From Deltaproteobacteria bacterium (lineage in GTDB: Bacteria; Desulfobacterota; Dissulfuribacteria; Dissulfuribacterales; QOAL01): a stretch of DNA of 51,413 nt. This document shows positions 11,409 through 41,197 of the stretch, piece by piece (the first letter of the stretch is position 1; every line of letters begins with the position of its first letter). The DNA is taken from contig JALWYO010000077.1 of the NCBI GenBank assembly GCA_026992735.1, forward strand, positions 1 through 51,413, written 5' to 3'. The translations under genes and the position numbers were made by a program. The notes under the pieces are model-generated. The model worked only from the letters and a program-made list of their open reading frames with translations. It had not been told where the DNA came from and made no database searches.

Positions 11409-13160
11409 TCAGGCAATATCCCCAAGCGCCCTGTCATAAAGCTTACCCACACCGTACTCCTTGCGTCTCTGGAATTTTTCCCACGGCGGGCCTATGATTT
11501 GCATCTCGGGATGTTCCTTCTGAACCTCTCTTGCAATCTGCATTTCTTTGGTACAGCCGGTGCTGTACGTGGCATCCTTGCCCACCCATTCCGGAGGCAC
11601 CTTTTCGCCCAGAAGCTCAAAGGCCTTTTCTATGTCTTCATAGGTCTGGAAACGCCAGATATCTATCAGCCCGCTCCGCTGAACAATCTCCCACATATAC
11701 ATGATGTCATCGGCATCCATTCCAGGCTCAAAATGCTCTGCCGGATTGATAACCACCACTCCTTCCTGCTTTTCCCGGAGATACTTGACAAAGACATTGA
11801 GTATCTTTTTCGCTGTCTCCAACTGGTTTGGAATGCTGCCAACTATTGCACTGTAGAACATGATGGTTTTGCCCCGGCCTTTTTCCACCTGAAGATGATA
11901 GATAAGGCTTTCGGCCTTGACCCTGAGGTCCTTCTCTGAGAAACGTATTACCTTGGGGTGATGCGGCTTCATAGTAAGAACAAGCCTTGATCCGGGCCCG
12001 CCGCTGGCCCTGAACAGCATGTCCCTGGTAAAACTGAAATGAGAATGCTCTATGCATCGGGCATCTCGTGGAGAACGGATTACTACTGCATCGGCCTCCT
12101 TGAAGGCCCTTGCAAATGTAACCGACGCCAGAAGCGGATTAAATTTCTCCTGGGTACCGTCAGATATGACAAATATAGTCCTGTCACTCTTGAGCTTGTC
12201 TATGAGCTCGTTCTTGGAGATATCCTTTCTTGCGATCACATCCGCCTCGCTCAAATGCTCTGCCAGAAATGGATCGTCTATTATGTCCTCCATGGTAATA
12301 TCGTGATAATAAAAGGCCTGTTTAACAGAAATTATAACCTTGACCCTGAAATGCAATAGCAGCTTGATTACCTCAAGATCCAGGAGAAATGCCCCTGCCG
12401 AGGGTGCATGCCATAAAAGATAATGCCATGCTTCCTGCTTCTGCCATGTGGAGAGCAAATCCAGAAACCAATTCCAGCCCTCACCTTCTATATCTCTGGA
12501 CATCAGCATGGAAATATCATCCCTGGTCGGCTTTTCCATGGTCATGAGCGTGTCTATGTTGCTGGACAGGCTGAGAAGACGCTTCAGTTTCAAGACGTTG
12601 ATCTGAAAATTTATGTCATTAAGAGGAGTATCAGGGGCTATGTCCAGACCGGAGCGCTGATTAAGGGCATCTCTGTAAGCATCTGTTGCCAGAAGCTCGT
12701 GGATCTTTCGATTCTTTCTTTCCTTTTCATGGGAAAGAGGCCTGTCTATCTCGCTTACCCTTACGAATATCTGCAAAAGCCTCTTTTCAACCCGGGACGG
12801 CAGCATGACCAAGGATGCTGTCTCATGGCGAAACTTTATCTTCAGGAGGCTCATCAGAAATTTCTTCTTGAAATCATCCTCTATGAGGCCGTTGACAAGA
12901 GGTTCCACCTTCTCCCACACCTTCATATACTGAAGGATGAGGCTGTCACTGTCCTGCTTGTTTATTATGCTATTGAAAGTCTTGTCAGAACAAGGATAGT
13001 AATAGGGTTCATCTTCCAGGTACACGATGAACTTGAGCTGCTCCGGAGAGGCTACCTCGTTTGGGAATGCCTCGTAGGCAAGGTGATTCTCTGTAAAAAA
13101 ATTGGCGATCCAGGCCTCTTTTGCAGGATCCTTTTTGGTTTTCAGACTGTTATCCGGCAT
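11409..13160 (-). CDS. Conserved protein, ARMT1/DUF89-like central region with extra C-terminal domain
   Basis: 583-aa ORF inside the operon; 'VIISVKQAFYYHDIT', 'VISDGT', 'FARAFKEADAVV' resemble DUF89 elements. Confidence 0.6.
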   Translation of the reverse strand: MPDNSLKTKKDPAKEAWIANFFTENHLAYEAFPNEVASPEQLKFIVYLEDEPYYYPCSDKTFNSIINKQDSDSLILQYMKVWEKVEPLVNGLIEDDFKKKFLMSLLKIKFRHETASLVMLPSRVEKRLLQIFVRVSEIDRPLSHEKERKNRKIHELLATDAYRDALNQRSGLDIAPDTPLNDINFQINVLKLKRLLSLSSNIDTLMTMEKPTRDDISMLMSRDIEGEGWNWFLDLLSTWQKQEAWHYLLWHAPSAGAFLLDLEVIKLLLHFRVKVIISVKQAFYYHDITMEDIIDDPFLAEHLSEADVIARKDISKNELIDKLKSDRTIFVISDGTQEKFNPLLASVTFARAFKEADAVVIRSPRDARCIEHSHFSFTRDMLFRASGGPGSRLVLTMKPHHPKVIRFSEKDLRVKAESLIYHLQVEKGRGKTIMFYSAIVGSIPNQLETAKKILNVFVKYLREKQEGVVVINPAEHFEPGMDADDIMYMWEIVQRSGLIDIWRFQTYEDIEKAFELLGEKVPPEWVGKDATYSTGCTKEMQIAREVQKEHPEMQIIGPPWEKFQRRKEYGVGKLYDRALGDIA

Positions 13161-17570: not shown

Positions 17571-18121
17571 TCTGATTTATCCTCTAATGTTTCATATACA
17601 AAAGAATGATTGGTATATATGCATATGTCAGCTGCGATCTCCAGTGCGCTCTGAGCTATCTCCCTGGCAGAAAGTTCGCTGTGCGCCACAAGAGCCCTGG
17701 CTGCAGAAAGGGCATACGGCCCACCGGAGCCAATGGCGATCAACCCGTCATCCGGCTCTATTACATCACCTGAGCCAGAAATCAACAGGGTATGGCTGTC
17801 ATTGGCTGCTATAAGCATGGCCTCCAGACGCCTGAGCAGCTTATCTGTACGCCAGTCCTTGGCAAGCTCCACGGCAGCTCTCAGGAGATTGCCACCGTAT
17901 GATTCTATTTTTGAATCAAGCCGTTCAAACAATGTAAAGGCGTCGGCAGTGGCTCCGGCGAAACCCGAGATGACCTTGCCGTTAAAAAGCCTTCTTACCT
18001 TCCTGGCCTTTTGTTTCAAAACAGTATTTCCAAGCGTTACCTGGCCATCTCCGGCAATCACAACCTGCCCCTTATGCCTTACTGCAATAACAGTTGTTCC
18101 TCTTATTTCTCCATTCATCAT
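17567..18121 (-). CDS. hslV: ATP-dependent protease peptidase subunit
   Basis: 'GTTVIAVR', 'AGDGQVT', 'GFAGATADA', 'AIGSGG', 'ICIYTN'; start ATG 18121 (ORF open to 18193). Confidence 0.97.
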
Positions 18122-18209
18122 GATCCACTTATTCCTCGAACTCTTCATGGAATGGCCACTCCGCTGCATGGCAGCAGATGTAAACTGGCCCATCCATGCT
18201 TTTTAACCA

Positions 18210-18239
18210 ATAATGGGACAAATTGCTCTTGTTTTTAAC
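18210..18239 (-). promoter_or_regulatory. Possible sigma-32-like promoter of hslVU
   Basis: Minus strand GTTAAAA-N14-TCCCATTAT resembles CTTGAAA-N13/15-CCCCATNT, upstream of heat-shock genes. Confidence 0.3.
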
Positions 18240-18254
18240 AAAATATGATTTGTG

Positions 18255-18352
18255 TCTGCTGGTGAATGCTGCATATGTTCAGACCAGAGAAGTCCAGACT
18301 GCCTGGCAAATCCAATCTCCGGCAATGCAGCAGGTTCAGTACCCATGGCAGG
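18255..18352 (+). repeat. Structured intergenic repeat element, diverged copy 3
   Basis: Same layout (ATGCTG..AGAC-N8-TCCAG..CAA..CAA..CAGTACC); perfect stem TGCTGCAT (18267-74) / ATGCAGCA (18325-32). Confidence 0.45.
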
Positions 18353-18367
18353 AGACCGTTATATTAA

Positions 18368-18432
18368 CCCGGATTATGCAGCTCGCAAGTTTGCCAAAGA
18401 TGCGAGGCAAAGGTCATAGTGCATAATCCGGG
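18368..18432. repeat. Inverted-repeat element directly after the FDH stop codon (MITE-like or 3' hairpin)
   Basis: Perfect 13-bp IR CCCGGATTATGCA / TGCATAATCCGGG, internal CTCGCA/TGCGAG stem, TTAA next to both ends. Confidence 0.65.
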
Positions 18433-18433
18433 A

Positions 18434-21400
18434 TTAATGTCCCCTGTCAATGGCACGGATACGCACTGCACATACCTTGTATTCGGGGGTCAGGGTCTTG
18501 TTATCCATGCCGTGACTTGTGAGAACATTGGTAAGATCATCCTGGAAATGAAACGTCATAAACACGGTACCAGGCTTGCTCCTTTCCGTAACAGTGGCCA
18601 CAGCCTTTATGCTACCCCTGCGTGACTCTATCCTTACGGTATTGCCATCTGCAATACCAAGGACCCTGGCGTCATCAGGATGGATTTCCAGCAGTTCCGT
18701 CCCTGCGATCTGATCAAACCCTTGGCACCTTCTGGTCATGGAGCCGTTATTGTAATGCTCCAGTCTCCTGCCGGTAATCAGCACCAAAGGATAATCCTTG
18801 TCTGCCTCTTCCTCGGGCACGATATATGAGACCGGCACAAAAGAGGCCCTTCCCCTGGGGAAGCGCTTGGTGTGAAGCAACGGTGTACCAGGATCCTGTT
18901 TTGAGCTACATGGCCAGACCTTGCCATCCTCACCCAGCCCCTGATATGTGATTCCCCCGTAAGAAGGAGTCAGGGCAGCTACCTCGGTCATTATCTGTTC
19001 CGGGCTGGTGTATATCATCGGATAGCCCATTGCCTGTGAAATAAGACAGATAATCTCCCAATCAGCCTTGGTGCTGCGCCTGGGAGGTATCACCTTGTTG
19101 ACTTTTCTTACACGCCGTTCGCCACTGGTAAAAGTGCCTTCTTTTTCATAAAAACATGCTGACGGAAGCACCACATGAGCGAGTTTTGCCGTCTCTGTCA
19201 TGAACATATCCTGCACCACTACAAAATCCATGGCCTTCATGGCCTTGCGGACATGTTCTATGTTGGACTGGGTATGGGCAGGATCATATCCTACGCAGTA
19301 AAGGGCCTTGAAGCTGCCATCCAGGGCAGCATCGTACATCTGCGGCTCCATAAGCCCCTTGGTCTTTGGAAGCGCCTTTACACCCCAGGCCCTGGCAAAA
19401 CGCTCCAAGACCTTCTGATCATCAGTATCCTGATAACCAGGATAGATATACGGCAAGGTGCCCATATCACAAGAACCCTGGACATTGTTCTGCCCCCTGA
19501 GAGGATTGATGCCATTGTTGGGCCTGCCAACGTGACCAGTAGCAAGTACCAGATTTGCAAGGGCAATAACACCGGCAGTACCGCCTTTGTGTTCTGTCAC
19601 CCCAAGGCCGTACAGAATCATAGAGTTCGCAGAAGTAGCATACAGCCTGGCAGCCTTCCGTATCAGTTCCGGCTTCACATCAGTGAGCTCAGCCATCCTC
19701 TCGGGAGAATAATCCTTGCAATGTTCCAGGATAGCATCAAATTTCTCTGTGCGTTCCTCAATGAATTTTTCATCCAGAAGGCCTTCCTCGATAATGGTAT
19801 GAAGCATGGCATTCAGCAGCGGGATATTACTGCCAGGCCGGACTCTCAGCCATATACCAGAGGACTGCTCATCTGCAATTACTGCCAGGTCGGTCCTTCT
19901 TGGGTCAATGACAATAAGCCTTGCCCCTCGCTTGACAGCTTCCCTGATCTTCAGGCCGATTATGGGATGTGCCTCAGTGGTATTTGCCCCGCATATAAGG
20001 AGACAATCTGCACCAATTATCTGCTCAAAAGGAGTTGTTGCTGCGCCGCTTCCCAGTGTTGCCAGCAGACCGCTGACAGATGGAGCGTGTCAGACCCGGG
20101 CACAATTGTCCACGTTGTTCGTGCCCCATGCGGCTCTCGCAAGCTTCTGAAGAAGGTAATTCTCCTCGTTTGTGCAGCGGGATGATGCAAGCACGCCCAT
20201 GCTGTCCGGGCCAAACTTGTCTCTTATGGCAAGAAACTTCTCGGCAGTTATTCTCAGGGCCTCATCCCATTCCACCTCTCTGAAAGGCTCTTCTACACTG
20301 TAACGGACAAGTGGGAGCCGAAGTCTCTCATGGTTTCTGTAAAATGAATAGCCAAACCGTCCCTTTACACACAGGTGACCAAAATTGGGAGGCCTGTCAG
20401 GATCTGCCTTCACCTCAAGGATAGCGCCATACATGTGAACTACGTCAATACTGCAGCCTGTACCGCAATAGGTGCATACTGTCTTCACTGACGACAATTG
20501 CGCAGGCAGAAGCGGCACCACGCTGTCCTGCTTTGACAGCGTACCTGTCGGGCATACATCCACGCAGGCACCGCAAGAGACGCAGTTCTGGTTTATCTTT
20601 ATGGAAACATCGTCAATAAGGCCGGTCTTCTGATCAAGAGTGAGATCCAACTCAAAAGCATCGTACTTGCAGCTTCTCACACACCTTGTGCAGCCTATGC
20701 ACTTGTTGGCATCCACCACGATAAATGGATGAGACTTGTCAACCTGGTACTTTAGCCTTGTCCTGGCCTTATTGGCCTTGACCTTGTAATCAACACACAT
20801 CTCACGATAACTGCATTTGGACAGGCCAAGGCATCCGCACTGAAGACAGCGCTTGGCCTCCCGCACGGCCATCTCCTCGGAAAATCCAAGCTGGACCTCG
20901 CCGAAATCCCCTGTCCTTCTCTCAGCAGGCCTGGCTGGCATGACCTCGTTAAGCTGAAGCTCATAGCCCTCAAAGTTGTGCATATCCACGTCTTCAAATC
21001 TCTTGCCCTTGGTGAAGTTGAAGCGTGGCTCAAGCACGGAAGGCCTTTCCTTTGTGAGATATTCGTGTATGGATTCTGCGGCCCTCCTGCCGCCTGCCAC
21101 AGCCTGTATAACCGTTCTTGAGCCAGTGGCTGCATCACCCCCTGCGTATATTCCATCCACGCTGGTCTTCATGGTGCTTGGATGGGCCTTTATGGTATTG
21201 CGAGGTGTAAGCGCTATAGATGCCTCAAGTTCGCCATAGCTGTGAAACGTGGGATCTCCTTCCTGGCCAAGGGCTGAAATAACAGTATCCCCGGTCCAGA
21301 AAAGCCTGGACCCAGGCATGGGAATCGGGCGCCTTATGCCGCGCTCATCAGGCTCGCCGAGTATGGTACGGGCCATCTCCACCTTGAGTTGCCCGTCTTC

Positions 21401-22564
21401 CTTCATAATCTTCAGAGGTGTGGCCATGAGAAAGAACTGCACGCCTTCCTTTTCCGCCTCTTCTATCTCCCTCTGATGCGCAGGAAGCTCTACCCTGGAC
21501 CTTGGATAGATAACCGTAACATTCTTTGCGCCCAGCCGCCTGGCGCTCCTGGCAGAATCCACAGCTATGTCACCGCCGCCGACAATAAGCACCTGGTCTC
21601 CAATCTCTGGCTTTGCCCCCATGTTTACTTCCCTGAGGAAATTAAGGCCGCACCTGGCGATTCCCGCACCTTCTAACTCGAGCTGTTTCTGCCGGGACAG
21701 GCCGGTAGCAATAAAAATGGCGTCAAATCCCTGGTCTCTAAGGGTCTGCAGGGTAAAATCCGTCCCCCATCTCTTTCCAAGCCTGGCATGTACGCCAAGG
21801 TTGAGGATGCCCTGGACCTCCCTGTCAACTTCCCGGTTTGGCAGCTTGTAGCCCGGGATGCCGTATCTCATTAGGCCACCGAGCTTGTCCTCTGCCTCGA
21901 AAATGGTAACCTGATGACCCTGTTTTCTCAAAAAATAGGCACAGGAAAGACCAGCAGGGCCACCACCAATGATAGCTACCTTTTTACCGGTAGGCTTGCC
22001 TACCTCTGTATCCCTGAACCTTGCCTCACGGGCATGATCTGCCACAAATCTCTTTAGATGGTTGATAGCAATAGGCTCATCCAGCAAAATACGCCTGCAC
22101 CTGGTCTCGCAAAACCTTGGGCATACCCTGCCTACTGCAATGGGGAGGGGATTCTTTTCCTTTATGAGCATCAGGGCTGCGAGATACTCCCCTTTTGCTA
22201 TAAGGTTCACATAACCCTGGACGTTTATGCCTCCGGGACATGTGAGGTTGCATGGAGCTCGGCAGTCCCCGTAGTGACTCTCTGCCAATACCTCCAGTCG
22301 CTCCTTTCGGAAGGCATCCAGGTCTCTATTGTGGACCTCTATAACTTGGCCATCTCCTGCAGGAGTAGCACAGGCCCTGACCCTGCCAAGACCCTCTATC
22401 TCTACCATGCACAGGAGACAGGGATTGGAAGATGCTTCCTCACCCTTGATATGACAGATGGTTGGAATTTTTATGCCCGCCGCTGCCGCTGCTTCAAGGA
22501 TGGTCTGACCCTTGACCGCAGCCACCTGTTTGCCGTCAATGGTTATATGAATAAGTTCAGCCAT
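18434..22564 (-). CDS. fdhF: Selenocysteine-containing formate dehydrogenase catalytic subunit fused to [2Fe-2S], GltD-like FAD/NAD(P)H and 2[4Fe-4S] modules (1376 aa)
   Basis: ORFs 20090-22564 and 18434-19807 are in frame and separated only by TGA 20090-92 in 'DNCARV-U-HAPSV'. Intervening codons translate open ('GANTTEAHP', 'IVIDPR'). Also 'CTYCGTGC', 'LRGQNNVQG', 'TPEYK'. Confidence 0.93.
20060..20078 (-). promoter_or_regulatory. SECIS element of the FDH gene
   Basis: UGUCAGC-GGUCU-GCUGGCA hairpin starting 11 nt after the UGA; spacing and GGUCU loop resemble the E. coli fdhF SECIS. Confidence 0.85.
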
Positions 22565-22659
22565 GACACCTCATATGAATTAAGACTTATATGCAATCCG
22601 TTATCTACTGCTGCAATCATGCAAATGAACGCAAGGCCACCGGCCTGTATCTTCACAGT

Positions 22660-22693
22660 AAAAAAATGGTGGGCAATAAACACAACCCACCAT
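22660..22693 (-). terminator. Intrinsic terminator downstream of acsE
   Basis: ATGGTGGG/CCCACCAT stem followed by a T run on the minus strand, about 50 nt after the acsE stop. Confidence 0.7.
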
Positions 22694-22742
22694 CAGACAA
22701 TACTTCGTTCCAGCTCTGTTGCAACCTGCCAGGACAATTACA

Positions 22743-23633
22743 TTAAAGTTCCAGCCAGGATTCGGAAAAGATGGTCTTGCCCATAAGCACCCTGGTAGTC
22801 TTGTAATATTCCAGCTCCTTGTCTGAAAGAGAAGATGGATCCGGATCATTGTCGTCCATTATATCATGAACCAATTTCAGCAGTTCCGGCCTTTCCCCGT
22901 GGGCCAACTCTATGAGCTCGTGGTCATATGTGTCCACAATGGCCGACCAGACACCGTGTTTCATGAGCATTGCAAGAAAGGCACGGTTGAGATATGGCCG
23001 AAGCTTCGTATCCACGCCATTCGATACATTGGAAAGACCCACAGTACTCTTGGCACCGGGAGCGATGTCAGGCAGCATTGACATGAATTCCAGCCCGCTC
23101 ATCACCTGGTCTGAACCCAGGGTAATTGGAGTGGCTATCGGGTCCACGAGTATCTTCTCATTGGGTATGCCTGCCTCGTTCATGGCCATTAAAAGGTCTA
23201 TGGTCATGGCTGCCCTTTCATTGGAATCCCTCGGCATGCCGTCCACTCCCCAGAGAAGCCCAACCACAAAACATCCTGCCTCTGCTGCAACAGGAATGAG
23301 CTTTTTCATCCTCTCAGGCTGGAGAGAAATGGAATTCATGATATGACGTTCCGGATGAGCAGCCGCCTTCATACCTGCTATCAAGGCATCCGCATTTGTG
23401 GTGTCAAGAGAGAGCGGACAATCTGTCACATCTTCCACCACGCTGACGATCCAGGGCATGAGATCCGGCCCGTCTTTTCTGGCAGGGCCGATATTCAGAT
23501 CCAGGAAGTCTCCTCCATCTGCCACTTCCTCATGCGCCATTTCCACGATAGGTCTGGGGTCCCTGGCCCTCATGGCACTTCCTGTGCGGTTCCCCATGAT
23601 ATTTATGCTTTCAGCTATACATTGAACATACAT
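22743..23633 (-). CDS. acsE: Methyltetrahydrofolate:corrinoid iron-sulfur protein methyltransferase
   Basis: Pterin-binding barrel 'IAESIN', 'LDLNIG', 'LSLDTTN', 'MNSIS', 'GLSNVSNG'; follows acsC. Confidence 0.9.
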   Translation of the reverse strand: MYVQCIAESINIMGNRTGSAMRARDPRPIVEMAHEEVADGGDFLDLNIGPARKDGPDLMPWIVSVVEDVTDCPLSLDTTNADALIAGMKAAAHPERHIMNSISLQPERMKKLIPVAAEAGCFVVGLLWGVDGMPRDSNERAAMTIDLLMAMNEAGIPNEKILVDPIATPITLGSDQVMSGLEFMSMLPDIAPGAKSTVGLSNVSNGVDTKLRPYLNRAFLAMLMKHGVWSAIVDTYDHELIELAHGERPELLKLVHDIMDDNDPDPSSLSDKELEYYKTTRVLMGKTIFSESWLEL

Positions 23634-27342: not shown

Positions 27343-30300
27343 TCAAAGCATGCCTTCCACAAGGGCATCGGCAAGGGCAGCAGCCTTGGGATGCCTCATG
27401 ACCATGAGTTCCCCGCCTGCAAGCAGGAGGGCAGAGGCAGTTATAGCCTCCATAAGCACCCCTCTTCTCTCCTGGTCACCCAACATGCCGTCAGACGGGA
27501 GTCTCGTCTCCTTGGCCTTCCAGACCTCCCGACCCAGGTTTACGATAAACGGGCATGAAAGCTTGTCATCCTGCTGGGTAAGGGCAGCCAGCCTGATCCT
27601 CTCCATTACTGAATAGGTGTATTCCAGCCCGTAACCAACAGCGCCGATGGAAGGATCCATAAGGATGTGATCCAGATGGACACCAAGGTTCTCCAGCAGG
27701 ATATTCAGCTGTTTCGCAAGATTTACATCAATAGGCGTAGAGGCTACCACCGGATACTGGAATGCCATTGCTGTAGCGCCAAGAGTCCTGTAATTGGCAT
27801 CGCTAAGCGGGCCCAGGCAGACTTTCTTGTCACCAATCCTGCCAGTGACCTCCCTGAGTGTCTCGGTGTCCTTTTCTGCATTACCGCAACCCCACAGGAT
27901 TATGGGGACATCTACTGCCTCTACAACCCTCTCAGCCACTTCAGCAGCCTCGGCCGGTGAAGCATCTGCACCATTTGGATCAGTGCTGACCAGAGACAGG
28001 CAGATTGATTTCGCATTGTACTGTTCCACGCACTTCCTGGCCCATTCCGCAGGATCTGAGAGGCAGTCTGAAAAATATTTCGTCAGAACATCAGGCCATT
28101 CCTCAGGCTCTGAATCCAGTACCTCGAATGCCACCCTTGGTGGATTAGGCATGTCGCCTTCAAAATTGTAAAAGGGAAGGGCAGTTTCCCCACCTACTGA
28201 AAAGGCATTTTCTCCATCACCCAGCATTACGCTTTGTATCATCCCTGAACAGGACTCCATGTAGACGTCTTCCGGTATGTCTCCCGCCCTTTCGGAAAGC
28301 GGGGGCTCATCCTTGGCAAGTGGCGTAACGGACAGATCCGAGACCCCCTCGCCGGCTGGCGCCGATATCTCAACCTTTGGAGCCTTGGGCTCTGGTGCAG
28401 GTTTCTCCTTCTTTTCTTCCTCTGCCGCCTTCTCAGGCTTCGCTGGCTTTTCCTCAGCAGGAGCAGCCTCTGCCTCTTCTTCCTTCTCTTCCTCTTCCTC
28501 TTCTGCAGGGGCTGCAGCAGGCTCAGGTGTCTTTTCCTCTTCAACAGAAGGGGCACCGGCTGCTTCGGGAATACGAATTCCCTCCTTGTTTTTGGCCCTG
28601 TTCAGGCCGTCCTTTGCCTTCCCATTCTCAGGATCAAGGGACAAGGCCTTTTCAAATTCAACAACGGCCTTTTCATAGTCGCCATTCATCATGGCAACGT
28701 TGCCCCTTGCAGTGTAACGGATTATCCACTTTTCCTTCCACCAGGTTTCATCCACGCCTTCGGGACAAGGCGGCAAAAGGCCTTCCGATTCCTCTGATTC
28801 TGATGGTTGAACTGCAGAAATCGCCTTCTCAAGGGCAGCCTTGGCCTCGGCAAGACCGGCCTTCGCCTTTGCATCTTCCGGATCGATACCAAGTGCCTGC
28901 TCAAAGGCCTCGATGGCACCATTGTAGTCACCACTGTGAAGCGCCAGGTTGCCTTTTGCAACCAGGTTTACAACCTCTTTATTCCTGGCTGGCTTCTCTG
29001 GCTTGACAGGCTCTTCCACCAGGGCCTCTGCTTCCGGCGGGGCCGGTGCAGCTTCTGGTACAGGCCCTGCCGGTTGAGGCTCAGCAGGCCCAGGAGCAGG
29101 CGGGGCCGGTGCAGATGGTGTCACAGGGACTGGCGCCTGGCCAAACTGCAACATGAATTCCGCTTCAAGGAATCTTCTAAGGGCCTCAAACTGCGTATCA
29201 TCAAGCCCCAGGACCGTCTTCAATGCCTCGAGACCAAGATTCAGTGACTCCAGCACCCGCTGCTCCCTGCCTGTAAGTGGACCTGCCGGCCCAGGAACAG
29301 GTGGAGCTGCAGGGGGTTGCGGTTCAGGAACAGGCGCTGATGGTGCTGCTGCCTGTTTTGCTTCAAGTTCCTTCTTTGCCATCTCTATTTCTGCTGTAAG
29401 TTTCTGGACTTCGGCCTCTTTGCGGCTTGCCATAGTCCTTGCCTCCTCTACCTGTTTCTTGAGATCTGAAATCTCAGAGGCTATCTTTTCCTTTTCCTTG
29501 ATCACTAGCTCACGGGAAGCTTGGGCCTCTGTTTTTGCCCTTTCCAGTTCTTCCTCCAGCTCTATTCTAATCTCTTTTCTGGCATCCTCCACAGCCTTTT
29601 CAATGGACTGGGAACTTGACAACACTGGTTCGATGCCCTTTGGGTCAGGCCTGTTGGAAAGCCCTGCCCTCTTGACTATCTCAGGCACAGCCTCTTCCCA
29701 CTCGATTGCCATCACATGTACACCGGCCACCCCGGGAATATCCTGCACCTGCTTTATGATATCGACGCAGATATTGATGCCCTCTTCCCGCTGATCAGAA
29801 GCATCGGAAAGCCTGGACAGCACGTCATCAGTCACATCCAGGCCAGGCACGAACTTCTTCATGTATCTTGCCATGCCCAGGGACTTTGGCGGGGTTACCC
29901 CGGCGAGTATATAGCATTTTTCATGAACGCCCAGATCCCGTACCATCTCCATGAACCTGGCAAATTTTTCCACGTTGTAGATGATCTGGGTCTGCACAAA
30001 ATCTGCACCTGCAGACACCTTCTTTGCCAGCCTTACAGGCCTGAACTCAAAAGGATCTGCAAACGGATTGGCGGCACAGCCCAAAAAGAGCCTTGGCTCA
30101 TTGCCTTTTATCTCCTCACCACACTGAAATGCCCTATCGTCCCGCATGCCCCGGACCATCTGAAGAAGCTGTATGGAATCCATGTCAAAGACGCCCTTTG
30201 ACTGGGGATGATTGCCGAATTTCTGATGGTCACCGGTCAGGCATAGAAGATTTTTTATGCCGAGGGCCGCGGCCCCCAGGATATCTGCCTGCATGCCGAT

Positions 30301-30558
30301 CCTGTTCCTGTCCCGGCAGGTCATCTGCATTACAGGTTCGACACCCTCCGCTAATGCTGCCAGCCCCGCTGTGAGACTGGACATCCTGACAATGGCTGTC
30401 TGGCAGTCTGTTATATTGACTGCATCCACATGGCCCTTAAGAATCCTGGCCTTTTTTCTAACCAGCCCCAGGTCACCGCTCTTTGGCGGCCCCAGTTCCC
30501 CTGTGACCGCAAAGGCACCTGAGCGCAATACATTTTCTAGATTGCTTCCTGCTTTCAC
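27343..30558 (-). CDS. acsD: Fusion: methylene-THF reductase MetF - coiled coil / Pro-Ala-Glu linkers / two TPR units - CFeSP small subunit AcsD
   Basis: N-terminal ~305 aa MetF ('AVNITD', 'QMTCRDRNR', 'LCLTGDH', 'GADFVQTQ'); C-terminal ~310 aa AcsD ('VGGETALPFY', 'PIDVNLAKQLN', 'GYGLEYTYSVMERIR', 'MRHP'). GTG start overlaps the metV stop, GGAGG RBS. Confidence 0.93.
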   Translation of the reverse strand: MKAGSNLENVLRSGAFAVTGELGPPKSGDLGLVRKKARILKGHVDAVNITDCQTAIVRMSSLTAGLAALAEGVEPVMQMTCRDRNRIGMQADILGAAALGIKNLLCLTGDHQKFGNHPQSKGVFDMDSIQLLQMVRGMRDDRAFQCGEEIKGNEPRLFLGCAANPFADPFEFRPVRLAKKVSAGADFVQTQIIYNVEKFARFMEMVRDLGVHEKCYILAGVTPPKSLGMARYMKKFVPGLDVTDDVLSRLSDASDQREEGINICVDIIKQVQDIPGVAGVHVMAIEWEEAVPEIVKRAGLSNRPDPKGIEPVLSSSQSIEKAVEDARKEIRIELEEELERAKTEAQASRELVIKEKEKIASEISDLKKQVEEARTMASRKEAEVQKLTAEIEMAKKELEAKQAAAPSAPVPEPQPPAAPPVPGPAGPLTGREQRVLESLNLGLEALKTVLGLDDTQFEALRRFLEAEFMLQFGQAPVPVTPSAPAPPAPGPAEPQPAGPVPEAAPAPPEAEALVEEPVKPEKPARNKEVVNLVAKGNLALHSGDYNGAIEAFEQALGIDPEDAKAKAGLAEAKAALEKAISAVQPSESEESEGLLPPCPEGVDETWWKEKWIIRYTARGNVAMMNGDYEKAVVEFEKALSLDPENGKAKDGLNRAKNKEGIRIPEAAGAPSVEEEKTPEPAAAPAEEEEEEKEEEAEAAPAEEKPAKPEKAAEEEKKEKPAPEPKAPKVEISAPAGEGVSDLSVTPLAKDEPPLSERAGDIPEDVYMESCSGMIQSVMLGDGENAFSVGGETALPFYNFEGDMPNPPRVAFEVLDSEPEEWPDVLTKYFSDCLSDPAEWARKCVEQYNAKSICLSLVSTDPNGADASPAEAAEVAERVVEAVDVPIILWGCGNAEKDTETLREVTGRIGDKKVCLGPLSDANYRTLGATAMAFQYPVVASTPIDVNLAKQLNILLENLGVHLDHILMDPSIGAVGYGLEYTYSVMERIRLAALTQQDDKLSCPFIVNLGREVWKAKETRLPSDGMLGDQERRGVLMEAITASALLLAGGELMVMRHPKAAALADALVEGML

Positions 30559-31223
30559 GGCAGCAAGTCCTCCCTGATTCTGCGACGCGGGCCGCCATGG
30601 CCTGCAGAGGTCCAGTCGCGAATTGGCATTATATTCTTCATCTCATCCGATCTGTTCAGCCCTGAAAGTTTGTCATATATCTGCTGCCAGATGCATGCAA
30701 CATCCGGATGGATCTCGCAACGTCCACCCTGAGAACCCCCGCACGGGCCATTGGAAAGGCTCTTGGCGCACCTTGCAACAGGGCAAAGCCCGCCGGTCAG
30801 ATGAAGCACGCATGCCCCACAGCCTGCGCACATTTCTTTCCACTCTCCACTGGACAGGTTGGCCCCGTAGAATGTGGTATCAAGGGCAGGCAACACGTTT
30901 ACCTTGTCGCAACGGTCTGCTATGAAATTCACACCTACTCCGCATGCCATGGAGAGCACTGCATCAAAATCTGCTGCATCCTGGTTGAGCGGGTCAATAT
31001 ATTCAGGATCGCACTGCCTGACTAATGTACGCTGCTCGATGTCTATTTTCTTGCCCCGCCTGGTAAGTCCGAGCTTCAGAGCTGATGCAAGGATTGCAAC
31101 CTCCTTGTCCCCACCTGCAGAACAGACCGCCACGCAACCCCTGCATCCAAGGATAAGAACACGGCTGCACCCATCTATCATTCCCAGAAGTTCTTTTAAT
31201 GTCTTTCTTTCAGCGATTATCAT
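30555..31223 (-). CDS. metV: Methylene-THF reductase Fe-S/Zn subunit MetV
   Basis: 'GCRGCVAVC', 'RQCDPE', 'ACGVGV', 'CAGCGAC', 'CPVARCAKSLSNGPCGG', 'CIWQQIY'; directly upstream of metF. Confidence 0.9.
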   Translation of the reverse strand: MIIAERKTLKELLGMIDGCSRVLILGCRGCVAVCSAGGDKEVAILASALKLGLTRRGKKIDIEQRTLVRQCDPEYIDPLNQDAADFDAVLSMACGVGVNFIADRCDKVNVLPALDTTFYGANLSSGEWKEMCAGCGACVLHLTGGLCPVARCAKSLSNGPCGGSQGGRCEIHPDVACIWQQIYDKLSGLNRSDEMKNIMPIRDWTSAGHGGPRRRIREDLLP

Positions 31224-31285: not shown

Positions 31286-31666
31286 CTAACCAGGCTGATC
31301 CTGCTCTGAAACCCTGGCAGCCATGAGTCTTGCAGCCTCCACAACAGGCTCTGTCTCGCCCCTTCCTGCATAAAACATCTCCACCAAAGCAGGATCCATA
31401 TCCAGCTCTTCAAGGATCTTTCTGGCCTGGCCCACTCTTTTGGAGGCCCTCCTGCTGCCTGAGAGGTTATGACATTTGTCAAGTTGACAGCCAACCACAA
31501 AGACGGCTTCAGCTCCCTCGGAAAAGGAATCGAGTATTTCCGGCACTTCCAGCCTGCCAGTGCACGGCAGCCTTTCAATCTCAACGTCTTCAGGAATAAG
31601 GCCTTCACTCCTCAATGCCTCAGGCTCCACACTCAGGGTATAATTGCAACAAAATCCCTTGATCAT
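31286..31666 (-). CDS. mvhD: MvhD/FlpD-family [2Fe-2S] subunit (all-Cys copy)
   Basis: 'GFCCNY', 'LPCTGRL', 'VFVVGCQLDKCHNLSG'. Confidence 0.85.
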   Translation of the reverse strand: MIKGFCCNYTLSVEPEALRSEGLIPEDVEIERLPCTGRLEVPEILDSFSEGAEAVFVVGCQLDKCHNLSGSRRASKRVGQARKILEELDMDPALVEMFYAGRGETEPVVEAARLMAARVSEQDQPG

Positions 31667-32243: not shown

Positions 32244-33044
32244 TCAGGAAGAAAGAGAAAAACTGTCTTTTTTCCGTGAAATCTGCCCTTTCTTCAACAT
32301 GGGGGCCAATATCTTTTCCAGTTCTTCTGCAGATGCACCTGTATCGCTGCAAAGCTTTTTGAGATCCGCAGGGCCTTCTTCCAAGATCATTCCAACCTCA
32401 GTAGCTATCCTCACCGACCTCATGGCAGGAAACACCTTTGCCTTCACACCCTTGGAAATAGCATCTCTGGAATAATCTCCTTCCTTTGCCATCTTCTTCG
32501 CAAGCTTTCCTAAAAGAGTGCGGGGCTTCCTGGCACCAGCGGCCTTAACGGCTGCCTTGAGCCTGCGGCCAACAACATCTGCAGGGATCTCGTCTGGGCC
32601 TGACCCCAACGGCCCCTTTTCCCTGATCCTGGACACATAGCCGGTTATGAGCTCTACGAACCTTGGAGCCTCTGCAGCAGATGCCCACTCCAGAGCCAGC
32701 CTTTCCCGGTCAACTCCACAGTCTTCCAGGAGCTGTCTTGCCGCCTCCGTTACTATCATAGCCTCGTAATTACCAGACTGGTAATGACATTCACCAAGGT
32801 GTCAGCCACCTGTAAACACACCATCAGCACCACACCGGAATGCCTCGATGACAAATCTGGCATCGATTCGGCCGGTGCACATCACCCTTATAACCCTGAC
32901 GTTGGGCGGATATTGATACCTGGAAACGCCTGCCGAGTCAGCTGCTGCATAACAGCACCAGTGGCAGAAAAAGCCCAGTATCTTGGGATCAAAACCCTCT
33001 TGGGTCATTTCATTCTCCTTTGTTACTGCGTTTTCCTTTGCCAT
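32244..33044 (-). CDS. mvhD: Selenocysteine-containing MvhD/FlpD subunit with C-terminal extension (266 aa)
   Basis: ORFs 32802-33044 and 32244-32759 are in frame through TGA 32802-04: '[20 protein letters not shown]' (canonical GCHxGxCHY); also '[11 protein letters not shown]', 'VMCTGR'. Confidence 0.92.
32769..32785 (-). promoter_or_regulatory. Candidate SECIS of mvhD
   Basis: AUUACC-AGUCU-GGUAAU perfect hairpin starting 16 nt after the UGA. Confidence 0.7.
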
Positions 33045-33050
33045 ACCGTA

Positions 33051-36000
33051 CTACCCCTCGTCACACTGCCGGCCGGAAAAGGCATGGATCTGAGCCATAA
33101 TGGCCTGGTCTGTAAAACCGCCCATGCTTATTGCTATGGTCGGACAATGGGATGCACAGATACCGCAACCCTTGCAGGAGGCTGTTATGGTCTGGGCCTT
33201 CTTCCTCTTGCCCACCTTGGAAAGCCTGATGGCATTGAACGGGCAGAGGCTCTCACATATGCCGCAGCCGATACAGGCATCCTGGTCAACATGAGATACG
33301 ATAGGAGCAACTGCGACCTTGCCCTTTGCAAGTGGTATGGTTGCCTTTGCTGCAGCAGCTTTTGCCTGGGCCACTGACTCCTCCAGGCTCTTGGGACCAT
33401 GCGCCAGGCCGCACAGATAAACTCCATCAACTGCAATCTCCACCGGCCTGAGCTTTGCGTGGGCCTCCAGAAAAAAACCTTCAGGAGTAAGGGGTGCCTT
33501 TAGAATCTTCGAAAGCTCCTGATTGTCTCCAGGCGCAATGCCTGCTGAAAGCACGACAAGATTGGCAGGTATCTCTATTTCCTCGCCGAGGAGCCTGTCA
33601 AAGGCCCTTACCTTGATCCCCCTCGCCTGCTTGATGACCTGCGGCTTTTTGTCAGTGCTGTATCTCAGGAAGATGACACCTTTTTCCCTGGCCTCCCGGT
33701 ACGCATCCTCATGGAAGCCGTATGTCCTCATGTCTCTGTAAAGGATATATATCCTGCAGTCAGGTTTGAGCTCCTTAAGCTTAAGGGCATTCTTCACCGC
33801 CTGGGTGCAGCACAACCTGCTGCAATGGCTCATATCATCGCCCCTAGAGCCCACGCACTGGATCATGACTATATTGCGGGCATTCTTCAGGAAGCTCTTT
33901 CCCCTTGCAAGCTTTTCTTCCAGTTCCAGCTGGGTGACTATCCTCGTGCTTTCGCCATAGGCATAAGATCTGGGTTTGTATTCCCTGGCTCCTGTGGCAA
34001 TAACGGTTACTCCGTGGTTGATGAGCCTGTTCTTCTTTCCCTGGCTTACAGTACTGGTAAAATTGCCCACGTAACCTGAAATAGCCTCAACGGTGGAGCC
34101 TGTAAGCACCTCTATTCCCGGGTGAGATTCCACGCTGGAAATCATATCTTCCATGACCTTCCTGGCGTCCTGGCCGTCCGTGGTCCACTGAAGCCGTCTC
34201 AGGTTTCCACCAAGATGCCTGGATTTTTCCACGATAGTCACGCTGTAACCCTGGTCTGCAATGGAAAGCGCTGCCGACATGCCGGCAGCCCCGCCACCAA
34301 GAACAAGGGCGCCCGGGGTCACGTCCACGGTGGGCTGTTCAAGAGGCGTAAGCAACCTGGCCTTGGCCGCTGCCATTCTCACCAGATCTTTGGCCTTTTC
34401 TGTTGCTGCCTCAGGCTCCTGTGCATGTACCCAGGCACATTGGTCACGAATATTTGCCATCTCCACCAACGCAGGATTCAGGCCTACAGAACGAAGAGTC
34501 TCCTGAAACAGGGGTTCATGGGTCCTTGGCGAACAGGCGGCAATAACTACCCGGTTCAGATTATTGTCTCTTATCTTCTCGGCTATACCTTTGAGTGCAT
34601 CCTGGGAACAGGAATATAGAGGATCTTCATAAAGCACCACCCCTGGAAGGCTTGCCGCATAATCGCGCACTGCCTTGACATCTACTACACCGGCAATATT
34701 CACGCCGCAGTGACAGACAAAGATGCCGATTCTCGGCTCCTGTTCCTCAAGGGCCTTGTTTTCTTCCGGATAGGTAATGCTTACTGTCTGGGAATTTCTT
34801 GCCTCTGCAAGAAGCTCAGAGGCAATGGCAGCGACACCCGATGCCTGGGTAACGCTCTCTGGAATATCCTTGGGCCCCTGGAAGGCCCCTGCTACGAATA
34901 CACCGTCCCTGGAGGTAGAGAGGGGAGAATCAACCCTGGTGCTGCAGAAATTATAGTTATTGAGTTTAATATCGGCTATCTTGGAAAGAGCCTCGGCATC
35001 CTCGGGAGACTCAAGCCCCACAGACAGGACAACCATGTCGAAGATACCGGAATGATGCTTCCCGTCATCCGTGGTCCAGGTAAGAGCAAGCCTGCCATCC
35101 ACCTGGTCCACCCTGGGCACCCTGGCCCTTATCACATTTATGCCGTACTTTTCCTGGGCGCGTTTCCTGGCATCGTCAAAGCCCTTGCCCTGCGTTCGGA
35201 CATCCATGAAAAATATGGACACGTCGAGGTCCGGCTCGTGCTCCTTGGCAACAGACGCCTCCTTGATAGCATACATGCAGCAGACCGAAGAGCAGTAACC
35301 GTTGCCGCACGTCTCGTCCCTGGAACCTATGCACTGGAGAAACGCAATTTTTCTCGGAGGCCTGTTGTCAGACGGCCTGACTATGTGTCCTTCAGTTGGG
35401 CCTGATGCACATGTGAGACGCTCGAATTCAAAGGCTGTCAACACGTCTGGATATTTACCGTAACCAAATTTTTCCAGCACGGAACTATCCACCCTGCCAA
35501 AACCAGGGGTGAGCACAACAGCACCTACTTCCAGCTCCAGGTTCTTGGGTTTCTGGCTGAAATCTATGGCCCCTGCAGTACAGGTCTGGGCACACAGATT
35601 ACACGTCTCGAAATTCACCCTGAGACATGCCTTTGCATCTATGTAATAACTGGATGGAATTGCCTGGGCATAATCGATATGCGGCGCCCTGGTAATCTCA
35701 AGCCTTTCGTTGTATGCATCAACCACGGGCCTGGGACAATACATGGTACACATGCCGCAGGCAGTACACAGATCTTCGTTTATATACCTGGGCTCCTGGA
35801 ATACCCTGGCCTTGAACTGCCCTGGTTTGCCCTCAAGCCCCTCCAGCCTGGCATTGGTAAGGATTTCTATGTTTGGAGACCGACCGGCCTCTACCAGCTT
35901 TGGCGCCAGGATTCACAACGCGCAATCATTGGTGGGAAAGGTCTTGTCGAGCTGGGCCATGACCCCGCCTATGGAGGCCTTCTTTTCCACTATGTAAACA

Positions 36001-36086
36001 TAGTAGCCCAGGTCGGCAAGATCCAGTGCAGCCTGAACTCCAGCCACACCGCCGCCGAGGACCATTATCGCACCGCTTTTAGCCAT
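33051..36086 (-). CDS. hdrA: Selenocysteine-containing HdrA-family flavoprotein with two FAD modules (1011 aa)
   Basis: Extends upstream of the tracked ORF: ATG 36086 '[16 protein letters not shown]...[19 protein letters not shown]' with TGA 35913-15 in frame; 'QCIGSRD..YCSSVCC', 'IGIFVCHCG', second 'LGGGAAG', 'QCVGSR..CSRLCC', C-terminal ferredoxin. Confidence 0.92.
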
Positions 36087-39433: not shown

Positions 39434-41197
39434 TTAGAACAGACCCTTTACCTTGCCGGTGTCAGTATCCACGTCTATCCTGCGGTATGCAGGATCTGAA
39501 CCTGTGCCAGGCATCAGGCTTATTGCTCCTGCTACAGGAACCACGAAACCAGCACCCTTGTAGGTGAGGATATCGCGTACGTGAAGCTTCCACCCCTTGG
39601 GCACTCCCTTGAGATTCGGATTGTCAGAGAGGCTCAGGTGGGTCTTGACCATGCATGTGCCAAGCTTGGATATTTCCGGATCTTTCTCCATGGCCTCTGC
39701 CTTTGCAGCTGCTTCGGGAGTATAGGTAACCCCGTCGCCACCGTAAACTTCCTTTGTAATAAGCTCAATCCTCTGGCGAAGCGGCATATCAAGGTCATAG
39801 AGGAACTTGAAATGATTTTCTTCATTACAGGCATCAACCACTGCGTCGGCAAATTCCAGGGCACCGTCACCGCCCTTTTCCCAATGTTCTGATACGGCAA
39901 CACGCGCACCTGCCTGTTCGCAGAGCCTGCGGCAGGCCTCGATCTCATCCTTGGTATCTGTATAAAATGCATTGATACACACAACCGGATTGATGCCAGC
40001 CTTCTTGACCGTCTCGATGTGATGCAGGAGGTTGGCGGTACCCTTCTCCACCCATTCAACATGTTCTTCATTGTACTCTGGCGGCATTGGACGGCCCGGC
40101 CTGGGAATCGGTGCTCCTCCGTGACATTTGAGCGCCCTGATGGTGGCCACTACTACCGCGCAGTTGGGTTTCAGGCCACTGAAACGGCACTTGAGGTTCC
40201 AAAATTTTTCGAACCCGATGTCAGCACCGAAACCGCTCTCTGTCACAAGGTAATCACCAAGTTTCAGGCCTATCTTGTCGGCAATCACGGATGACTGGCC
40301 AATGGCTATGTTGGCAAAAGGCCCTGCATGTATCAGGCATGGCTGCCCTTCAACAGTCTGCATGAGATTGGGATTGACGGCCTCCACCATCCATGCGGTC
40401 ATTGCACCTGCCACCTCCAGATCCTCTGTTGTGACAGGCTTGCCGGTGCGGTCATAGGCAACCACTATCCTGCCGATCCTCTCCCTCAGGTCCTTGAGAT
40501 CGTTGGCAATGGCAAGGATGGCCATAATCTCGGAACTCACTGCGATATTGAACCCGCTCTGCATGGTCATACCGTCCATGCGCCCGCCAAGACCAATGGT
40601 GATGTTCCTGAGGGCCTGGGCACAGAAGTCGAGGATCCACTTGAATTCCACACTTTTTGGATGGACATTGATTCTCTTGAGATTTCTCTGCGCAAGCTGC
40701 TCATCAGTATAGTTTGACTCATGCTGCATCCTTGCAGTAAGGGCTACCATGCCGAGGTTATGGGCATTCATGATGGCGTTGATGTCACCGGTAAGGCCAA
40801 GGGAAAACTTGGAAAGAGGAATTACCTGTGCAAGGCCGCCGCCTGCAGCGCTTCCCTTTATATTGAAAGTGGGCCCGCCTGACGGCTGACGAAGAGCGCC
40901 GATCACGTTCTTGCCCCTCTTGCCCAGACCTTCCATCAGGCCGACTGCACATGTACTCTTTCCTTCGCCAAGGGGTGTAGGAGTAATGGCAGTAACATCA
41001 ATATATTTTCCATCCGGCTTGTCCTTGAGCCTTTCAAGTGCCTTTGCGTAGTCTATCTTGGCAACATAGTGGCCATAGGGAAGGAGCTCTTCCTTGTCCA
41101 GGGCAAGCTCTTCTCCGAGCTGATAGACCGTCTTCATGGTCTCTTCAGCTGCCTCTGCTATCTGCCAGTCTTTCATCTTGGTGGGGTCCAGTTTCAT
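39434..41197 (-). CDS. fhs: Formate--tetrahydrofolate ligase
   Basis: '[14 protein letters not shown]', '[19 protein letters not shown]', 'HAGPFANIA', '[14 protein letters not shown]'. Confidence 0.98.

Follow-up and report, generated by a model that had tools for sequence, protein, structure and literature searches.

The locus and its reading frame

The stretch of DNA analysed here, referred to as the window, comprises the 51,413 nucleotides of contig JALWYO010000077.1, from a deltaproteobacterium of the order Dissulfuribacterales, and contains at positions 18434 to 22564 a gene which would encode a selenocysteine-containing formate dehydrogenase (FDH) with a built-in flavin module. On the minus strand (22564..18434) and with TGA translated as selenocysteine (Sec, U), the gene reads as one frame of 1376 residues plus stop, with a single in-frame TGA at codon 825. 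The plus-strand reading of the same interval was ruled out, as it contains many stops. Translation table 11 splits the frame into an open reading frame (ORF) of 824 amino acids (aa; 20090..22564) and a downstream ORF starting at an ATG (18434..19807, 457 aa), and beyond the TGA there are 551 open codons which are homologous to FdhA along their whole length. Among the protein-search matches listed, the database entry for the window's own product is an 824-aa protein, while an 824-aa relative, NPA95406.1, was deposited under the name 'FAD-dependent oxidoreductase'.

The original prediction, made from the DNA alone, had described a frame of 1376 codons with UGA in the motif CARV-U-H, joining a cytoplasmic FdhA to a GltD/SfrB-like flavin module, and had anticipated that annotation pipelines would cut it in two. 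Its coordinates were right, although the gene is on the minus strand; the fusion was recovered as one frame with Pfam and NCBIfam matches, and the cut is that seen in the stored 824-aa product and in the relative named merely as an oxidoreductase. It had also proposed that there is no twin-arginine translocation signal and, in fact, no twin-arginine motif was seen in the N-terminus (MAELIHITIDGK) on direct reading of the translation. The interpretation of the span as one functional selenoprotein gene, in which a predicted cytoplasmic FdhA is joined to a GltD/SfrB-like flavin module, is therefore supported. A promoter and terminator scan of positions 18100-22900 gave counts no better than chance, and no tRNA genes were found in the window.

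The selenocysteine codon and its insertion element

Codon 825 lies in the sequence ...NCARV-U-HAPS. In an alignment of 24 sequences (the window protein, 18 full-length homologues and five truncated ones), the Sec column is occupied by Cys in all 18 other full-length homologues, and the five truncated ones all terminate at ...NCARV. In addition, 80 related loci were gathered from species-representative genomes, 60 of which match the active-site pattern, the 20 without a pattern match being left uncounted. A search for homologues with Cys or UGA at this site had been suggested from the outset, and both kinds were found: the codon is TGA in 31 of the 60 loci and TGC or TGT in 29. Moreover, a full-length frame with TGA was recovered in 24 of 40 relatives (64-86% identity; 23 with one TGA and one with two), a figure which is a lower bound since more copies end at contig ends.

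The codon is followed by a hairpin which would act as the selenocysteine insertion sequence (SECIS). With positions numbered from the U of UGA, its lower helix pairs +6..+11 with +40..+46 and its upper helix +16..+21 with +27..+32 (20061-20077), closed by the loop GGUCU. A gap-free alignment of the 60 nucleotides from the UGA was built from the window and the 31 TGA loci (32 sequences), in which 96.8% of the upper-helix cells are paired and three of the six pairs are altered on both sides, pair 18:30 occurring as GC (20), CG (6), AU (2) and UA (2). When the partner was shifted by 1-3 columns, the pairing of the whole 12-pair structure fell from 86.8% to 29-66%. The window's own helix, GUCAGC/GCUGGC, departs from the common GUGGCC/GGCCAC at three pairs, with pairing kept. 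The 29 Cys loci served as a control: 60% of their cells pair, against 96% in the 31 TGA loci; all six upper-helix pairs are formed in 24 of the 31 TGA loci and in none of the 29 Cys loci, and the GGUCU loop is found in 24 and three of them, respectively. The G at +23 and the U at +24 are invariant in all 32 TGA-bearing sequences, and they correspond to the bases numbered as SelB contacts in the fdhF element of E. coli.

Covariance-model searches were less telling, since no Rfam model matched the window at gathering thresholds, and a permissive scan gave only a match to RF01989 (SECIS_3) which, at 25.1 bits (E 0.0015 over 301 nucleotides), fell short of the gathering score of 63. A weak PYLIS_3 match on the opposite strand (E 0.067) was dismissed as a chance hit. 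In folding energy, the SECIS region was no better than shuffled sequences (z -0.08) and comparative pairing was therefore relied on. The earlier proposal of a well-placed SECIS is strongly supported by this comparison, the hairpin standing 3' of the UGA with its pairing kept by compensatory changes in TGA relatives and not in Cys relatives.

The presence of the Sec machinery had been set as a further check. The genome contains selA (608 bits), selB (344 bits, above the cut-off), selD (375 bits, G000:C31:7296-8219, with one in-frame TGA) and a tRNA-Sec gene on contig C63. The in-frame TGA of selD would make its product a Sec-type selenophosphate synthetase. Short of protein chemistry, the prediction that the gene encodes a selenoprotein can be regarded as established.

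Domain organization and the catalytic half

Domains were assigned with Pfam and NCBIfam profiles, and ligand conservation was taken from the 24-sequence alignment (Table 1). The order originally listed, that is, [2Fe-2S] domain, GltD-like domain, ferredoxin clusters and FdhA, was found, but the list omitted the invariant cluster of C573, C576, C578 and C584. Residues C37, C49, C52 and C65 of the [2Fe-2S] domain are invariant, as are H97, C101, C105, C109, C148, C152, E153, C156 and K171 (24 of 24 sequences). Both Rossmann folds, for flavin adenine dinucleotide (FAD) and for the nicotinamide nucleotide, are present together with their N-terminal two-cluster domain and its ligands. The PRK12814 model, which represents a [2Fe-2S]-GltD-ferredoxin protein, matches residues 5-633 with 588 bits, its cut-off of 916 not being reached.

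Table 1. Features of the fused formate dehydrogenase gene in window coordinates
Feature	Position	Strand	Basis
Whole gene, fused FdhB(GltD-like)-FdhA selenocysteine formate dehydrogenase (predicted)	18434..22564	-	one-TGA frame; TIGR01591 and PRK12814 matches
N-terminal [2Fe-2S] domain, residues 4-79	22328..22555	-	Pfam Fer2_4, E 4.7e-18
Two-[4Fe-4S] domain of GltD/NfnB-like module, residues 101-181	22022..22264	-	Pfam Fer4_20
FAD / NAD(P)H two-Rossmann module, residues 194-492	21089..21985	-	Pfam Pyr_redox_2, E 6.9e-35
FAD dinucleotide motif GGGPAG, residues 200-205	21950..21967	-	
Second Rossmann motif GGGDIA, residues 329-334	21563..21580	-	solved relatives have GGGNTA or GAGNTA
YPRSR, residues 353-357, at the place of YRR	21494..21508	-	alignment to five solved NADP(H)-binding relatives
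Extra four-Cys motif C573-x2-C576-x-C578-x5-C584	20813..20848	-	invariant in 24/24 sequences
2x[4Fe-4S] ferredoxin domain, residues 621-674	20543..20704	-	Pfam Fer4_7; eight Cys invariant
[4Fe-4S] domain of molybdopterin enzyme, residues 692-741	20342..20491	-	Pfam Molybdop_Fe4S4, E 6.3e-18
UGA codon 825, read as selenocysteine, followed by His826	20090-20092	-	Cys in homologues; Cys-His of FdsA
SECIS hairpin (predicted)	20047..20087	-	fold, sub-threshold SECIS_3 match, pairing across TGA loci
Molybdopterin oxidoreductase domain, residues 747-1177	19034..20326	-	Pfam PF00384, E 3e-68
Active-site Arg1023 (predicted)	19496-19498	-	aligned to 6tg9_A Arg
Molybdopterin dinucleotide-binding domain (Molydop_binding), residues 1260-1366	18467..18787	-	Pfam PF01568, E 8.1e-30

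The catalytic half was identified by the Fdh-alpha equivalog TIGR01591, which scores 835 bits over residues 695-1369, the cut-off being 666.25. Its best solved match is FdsA of Rhodobacter capsulatus (6tg9_A, 765 bits, residues 576-1371), in which the Cys-His pair aligns with U825-H826 and the Arg of ...NPLRGQNN... with R1023, a residue that is invariant in the 19 sequences reaching this position; the pair of Sec or Cys and His is likewise invariant in the homologues long enough to include it. The residues Cys386, His387 and Arg587 of FdsA, in the printed chain numbering, are the catalytic ones. A Cys/SeCys-His-Arg triad is stated for such FDHs in PMC8965080. The protein is thus assigned to the alpha family of metal-dependent FDHs, with tungsten (W) or molybdenum (Mo) held by bis(pyranopterin guanine dinucleotide) (bis-PGD), and is predicted to be active.

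Relationship to described enzymes

Among solved structures, the N-terminal part corresponds to large subunits of the Bfu type, its first 870 to 1030 residues aligning with them along the whole length: StnC (8oh5_C, residues 5-874, E 1.4e-186), 9bov_A (residues 4-1036, E 1e-202) and NfnA 9n5u_A. According to PMC10482914, StnC of Sporomusa ovata is made up of a [2Fe-2S] domain, a GltD-like domain binding FAD and NADPH (the phosphorylated form of reduced nicotinamide adenine dinucleotide, NADH; either of the two is written NAD(P)H), NuoG-like clusters and an inactive FdhF-like domain; it holds FAD, six [4Fe-4S] and one [2Fe-2S] cluster, with an electron path leading from FAD along the clusters, and the branch toward the FdhF-like domain is called a non-functional remnant by its authors. 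The domain order of StnC, 9BOV and 9N5U is that of the window protein, and the predicted cluster number is the same, the corresponding ligand sets (six [4Fe-4S] and one [2Fe-2S]) being invariant in all 24 sequences. The differences are that StnC, as described, has an inactive FdhF-like domain and passes electrons to a bifurcating module of the HydBC type, whereas the FdhA half of the window protein is intact and no NuoF/HydB homologue was found in the genome; moreover, StnC has YRR and Arg239 where the window protein has YPR and Lys240. By alignment offset, K171 of the window protein would stand one position from Lys170 of StnC. FdsA, from the R. capsulatus FdsABG complex (6TG9/6TGA), shares the active site of Cys or Sec, His and Arg, but uses Cys and exchanges its electrons by way of separate NuoE/NuoF-like subunits with flavin mononucleotide, in contrast to the Sec and the built-in GltD-like FAD module of the window protein.

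The nearest system in print is RS08735 of Desulfurivibrio dismutans, which PMC12142623 (2025) calls 'a fused FdhAB protein' with molybdopterin, NAD(P)H/FAD and ferredoxin domains. There it adjoins HdrA/HdrL and MvhD inside a Wood-Ljungdahl cluster whose genes are expressed together at similar levels, and CO2 reduction with NAD(P)H is proposed. The one-polypeptide architecture and the placement with Wood-Ljungdahl, HdrA-like and MvhD genes are shared, the likeness having been drawn from that description and through a Desulfurivibrio sp. homologue, P0040 (54% identity); nevertheless, the window gene follows acsE, and the Hdr and Mvh genes are 10 kb off, beside metVF. In Moorella thermoacetica, the NADP-dependent W-Se FDH is encoded by separate genes, sfrB2, sfrA2 and fdhF3 (PMC13040438), and the FdhA part of a Moorella mulderi locus (L048) is 48% identical to the window protein. 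The flavin module is thus on separate polypeptides in Moorella, whereas in the window protein it stands within the FdhA chain, after the [2Fe-2S] domain and ahead of the ferredoxin clusters, and NADPH use, a possibility in the window protein, was measured for the Moorella enzyme. The W-containing Fdh3 of Thermococcus onnurineus works with an NfnL/GltD-like NADP-binding protein, and NADPH-dependent CO2 reduction was measured with it (PMC8965080); yet it is made up of four separate subunits with an intact Arg-Arg doublet, in contrast to the fused window protein, in which the first Arg is Pro.

The flavin module itself has as its best solved relatives NfnA 9n5u_A, 9bov_A, StnC 8oh5_C and NfnB/NfnL. 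At the position of Lys240, NfnB has an Arg which is held necessary for bifurcation (PMC10482914). Lys is found there in 18 of the 24 family members, and this replacement argues for an ordinary, non-bifurcating flavin.

Gene neighbourhood

The fused FDH gene is the last of a Wood-Ljungdahl cluster which reads on the same strand, from upstream to downstream, fhs (39434-41197), folD, cooS, an HdrA-like gene, an MvhD-like gene, a polyferredoxin gene, a second mvhD (31286-31666), metV, a metF-TPR-acsD fusion (TPR, tetratricopeptide repeat), acsB, acsC, acsE and the fused FDH gene, followed by hslVU. The occurrence of fhs in this cluster fits the link to Fhs that had been proposed at first. The HdrA-like and MvhD-like genes are located 10-13 kb upstream of the FDH gene and not adjacent to it. 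Elsewhere, the fused form occurs in 33 of the 80 related loci; seven of the 33 have an HdrA-like gene directly beside the fused FDH, six of these seven with an MvhD-like gene too, and acsB-acsC is found just upstream in seven of the 33. Many of the 33 loci have short flanks, for which reason those without such neighbours say little.

Several of these neighbours are themselves worth recording. The HdrA-like gene (33051-36086, minus strand) was called as a 900-aa ORF which extends through an in-frame TGA (35913-35915) to a start at 36086, giving about 1011 aa, the TGA standing in ...TNDCAL-U-ILAPK..., directly after a GGGVAG dinucleotide fold; it is probably the second selenoprotein of the cluster. 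Similarly, a 171-aa ORF that partially matches FlpD/MvhD constitutes the last part of a protein of about 266 aa (32244-33044, minus strand) whose MvhD-like domain is broken by an in-frame TGA at 32802-32804 (...GG-U-HLGECH...), which makes it probably the third. Homologues of the MvhD-like gene adjoin HdrA-like genes beside fused FDHs in other genomes. The 1071-aa product of 27343-30558 (minus strand) combines a methylenetetrahydrofolate reductase domain (7-299), TPR motifs (about 530-645) and an AcsD/CdhD corrinoid-protein domain (777-1017), and metV (30555-31223) is just upstream of it. A 583-aa ORF at 11409-13160 (minus strand) gave no NCBIfam or Pfam match.

Genome inventory

In the genome, the fused gene is the only FdhA above the family cut-off (831 bits in the genome scan). 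The genome, with an estimated completeness of 98.85%, gave no homologue of Complex1_51K (PF01512; NuoF/HydB), and both the usual diaphorase partner and a StnAB-type partner are excluded on this ground. The presence of dsrA indicates that the organism is a dissimilatory sulfur metaboliser. Another molybdopterin protein of about 801-806 aa, without TGA (G000:C28:3528-5747; L093 1369-3774), scores 397 bits, below the Fdh-alpha cut-off, and is conserved at about 805 aa in most of the relatives searched.

Proposed mechanism

The interpretation we favour, with a probability of about 0.7, is that the gene encodes a cytoplasmic, Sec-containing W or Mo bis-PGD FDH/CO2 reductase with a built-in GltD/NfnB-like FAD module, a 'fused FdhAB', which would serve the Wood-Ljungdahl cluster. 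UGA-825 would be read as Sec by means of the downstream hairpin, SelB and tRNA-Sec. The electron path was drawn by homology to StnC and FdsA, from alignment of the sequence to their solved structures. NAD(P)H would deliver a hydride to the FAD. From there, single electrons would enter the pair of [4Fe-4S] clusters in the GltD-like domain, move on to the C573 cluster and both ferredoxin clusters, and leave the chain by way of the [4Fe-4S] cluster next to the pterin. They would end at a W/Mo centre that has Sec825 as its ligand and His826 and Arg1023 as neighbours, the site at which CO2 and formate would be interconverted. The branch described as a remnant in StnC would, therefore, be in working order in the window protein, and the enzyme would supply Fhs with formate, or consume formate if the pathway is oxidative. 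Since the ligand sets account for as many clusters as in StnC, this chain of NAD(P)H, FAD, clusters and W/Mo-Sec site represents the most economical mechanism, and the absence of a NuoF-like gene from the genome makes it plausible that the FDH is self-contained.

A number of points weigh against this interpretation. The sequence is compatible with either W or Mo, and the literature search found no purification or assay of any fused FdhAB. The [2Fe-2S] domain and the C573 cluster, which in StnC form the route to a partner subunit (PMC10482914), offer a possible second electron entry. With dsrA in the genome, the Wood-Ljungdahl pathway may run in either direction. Moreover, FdhD, the cofactor sulfurase, was not found in the genome with NCBIfam and Pfam models, while it was detected in 24 of the 40 relatives; nor was FdhD detected in seven of the relatives whose fused TGA gene is full-length. 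In at least two relatives of the same genus, fdhD shares a contig with a second TGA-containing FDH of about 930 aa, which is lacking in the window's assembly.

The nucleotide site belongs with these points, because the YRR motif is incomplete, reading Y353-P354-R355. The Tyr-Arg-Arg residues of NfnB hold the 2'-phosphate and DsrL proteins with YRR use NADP(H) only, those without it preferring NAD(H) (PMC7596348); the Arg-Arg doublet is assigned the same role in the NADP-dependent Fdh3 (PMC8965080). Among the 33 fused loci YRR is kept in only 19, YPR being found in eight, a group which takes in the nearest relative of the window's clade and the Desulfobulbaceae-type loci, and other residues in six; the 24 aligned sequences have P at position 354 in 14 cases, D in four and E, Q and R in two each. 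GGGDIA (329-334) and YPRSR (353-357) were both found where the original prediction had placed them. It had also read GxGxxA as a sign of NADPH, which does not hold: the motif is common to every NfnB/GltD relative, so that specificity does not follow from it, and the five best solved relatives, which all bind NADP(H), combine GGGNTA or GAGNTA with YRR where the window protein has GGGDIA and YPR-SR. Since Tyr353, Arg355 and Arg357 are retained, NADPH binding is possible and not predictable. A preference for NADPH may tentatively be put first, at somewhat short of even odds; one for NADH appears rather unlikely, and the use of both a little more so.

Alternative explanations

The most serious alternative is that the enzyme is not self-contained, its [2Fe-2S]/NuoG-like region docking to an HdrA-like flavoprotein and an MvhD-like adaptor, which would bring low-potential electrons or allow bifurcation or confurcation between NAD(P)H, ferredoxin and CO2/formate. 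We consider this unlikely, even though both genes lie in the same cluster and on the same strand, and the association recurs in the seven fused loci with an HdrA-like neighbour (six with MvhD-like). An HdrL-FdhAB link was proposed for D. dismutans, together with similar expression of the whole cluster (PMC12142623), the [2Fe-2S] branch of StnC runs to a partner subunit as described, and the incomplete YRR could mean that electrons now enter chiefly elsewhere than at the nucleotide site. Nevertheless, the Hdr and Mvh genes of the window adjoin metV and metF, so that a Moorella-type Hdr-MvhD-MetVF reductase (PMC5736913) fits at least equally well; 26 of the 33 fused loci are without such a neighbour (many with short flanks), including every gammaproteobacterial one; and both folds, for FAD and for the nucleotide, are conserved in full, while Lys240, in place of the bifurcation Arg of NfnB, makes it unlikely that the built-in flavin would bifurcate. 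In a particular form of this explanation, the YPR-type nucleotide site would be one of two entries, and the FDH would form, with the Sec HdrA-like and Sec MvhD-like proteins, a three-selenoprotein flavin-based confurcating CO2 reductase. This seems improbable; if true, it would represent the bacterial counterpart of the methanogen Fdh-MvhD-Hdr assemblies.

The domain order shared with StnC 8oh5_C, 9bov_A and NfnA 9n5u_A could also mean that the protein is a StnC/BfuA-type subunit of an electron-bifurcating transhydrogenase, its FdhA-like half being a structural remnant. This is very hard to sustain, since that half exceeds the Fdh-alpha equivalog cut-off and keeps Sec-His...Arg, whereas the domain of StnC is described as inactive; in addition, the NuoF/HydB-type partner was not found in the genome, and the maintenance of a costly Sec codon and its SECIS across the order argues for catalysis. 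Hardly credible at all is the reading of the TGA as a true stop or a sequencing error, with only the 824-aa product made and the downstream part a decayed remnant. Table 11 calls do end at this TGA and the Rfam SECIS model stays below its threshold, but the open codons that follow are FdhA-homologous throughout, the same TGA recurs in at least 24 of the 40 relatives and in 31 other loci, the hairpin covaries and the Sec machinery is in the genome.

Distribution and significance

The single-chain design had been presented at first as unusual, which proved not to be the case. About 90 of the best 120 matches in the protein search are proteins of 1304-1400 aa covering 95-100% of the query, while 26 are of 818-857 aa and cover only its first 60%, the window's own product being one of these. 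Among the matches listed, homologues of about 1370 aa align at 99-100% coverage, and the named ones, with 51-59% identity to the window protein, belong to Dissulfuribacter thermophilus, Dissulfurirhabdus, Thiovibrio, Desulfurivibrio and cable bacteria. Besides its share of the related loci (33/80), the fused form is conserved across the organism's order, and it was found in Vibrio, Aeromonas, Photobacterium, Shewanella, Chloroflexota and Halanaerobiales genomes as well. It is, moreover, in print as 'fused FdhAB' (PMC12142623), for which reason it will not surprise specialists; PMC6405883 and bioRxiv 2021.09.25.461819 describe only Nfn or HdrA-NfnB fusions and no FDH-NfnB fusion, and a Vibrio natriegens preprint does not mention the fused form. 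The design being already noted and common in sulfur-cycling bacteria, the gene is an annotation fix and not a new kind of enzyme.

This fix has consequences, since annotation of the gene and of many of its relatives routinely stops at the Sec codon and leaves them under wrong names such as 'FAD-dependent oxidoreductase', and metabolic reconstructions of sulfur-cycling Wood-Ljungdahl bacteria can consequently miss their sole cytoplasmic CO2 reductase. Members of the family occur widely and are conserved; they look like compact catalysts that would carry electrons from NAD(P)H to CO2 on one polypeptide, and they would appear to be the functional equivalent of what StnC-type transhydrogenases retain as a 'remnant' FdhF-like domain. 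Furthermore, its variable YRR/YPR site provides a simple handle on nucleotide choice. The arrangement of the modules is not uniform, as in four of the loci (L069, L071, L087 and L089) the GltD-like stretch is found directly upstream of the [2Fe-2S] domain and not after it.

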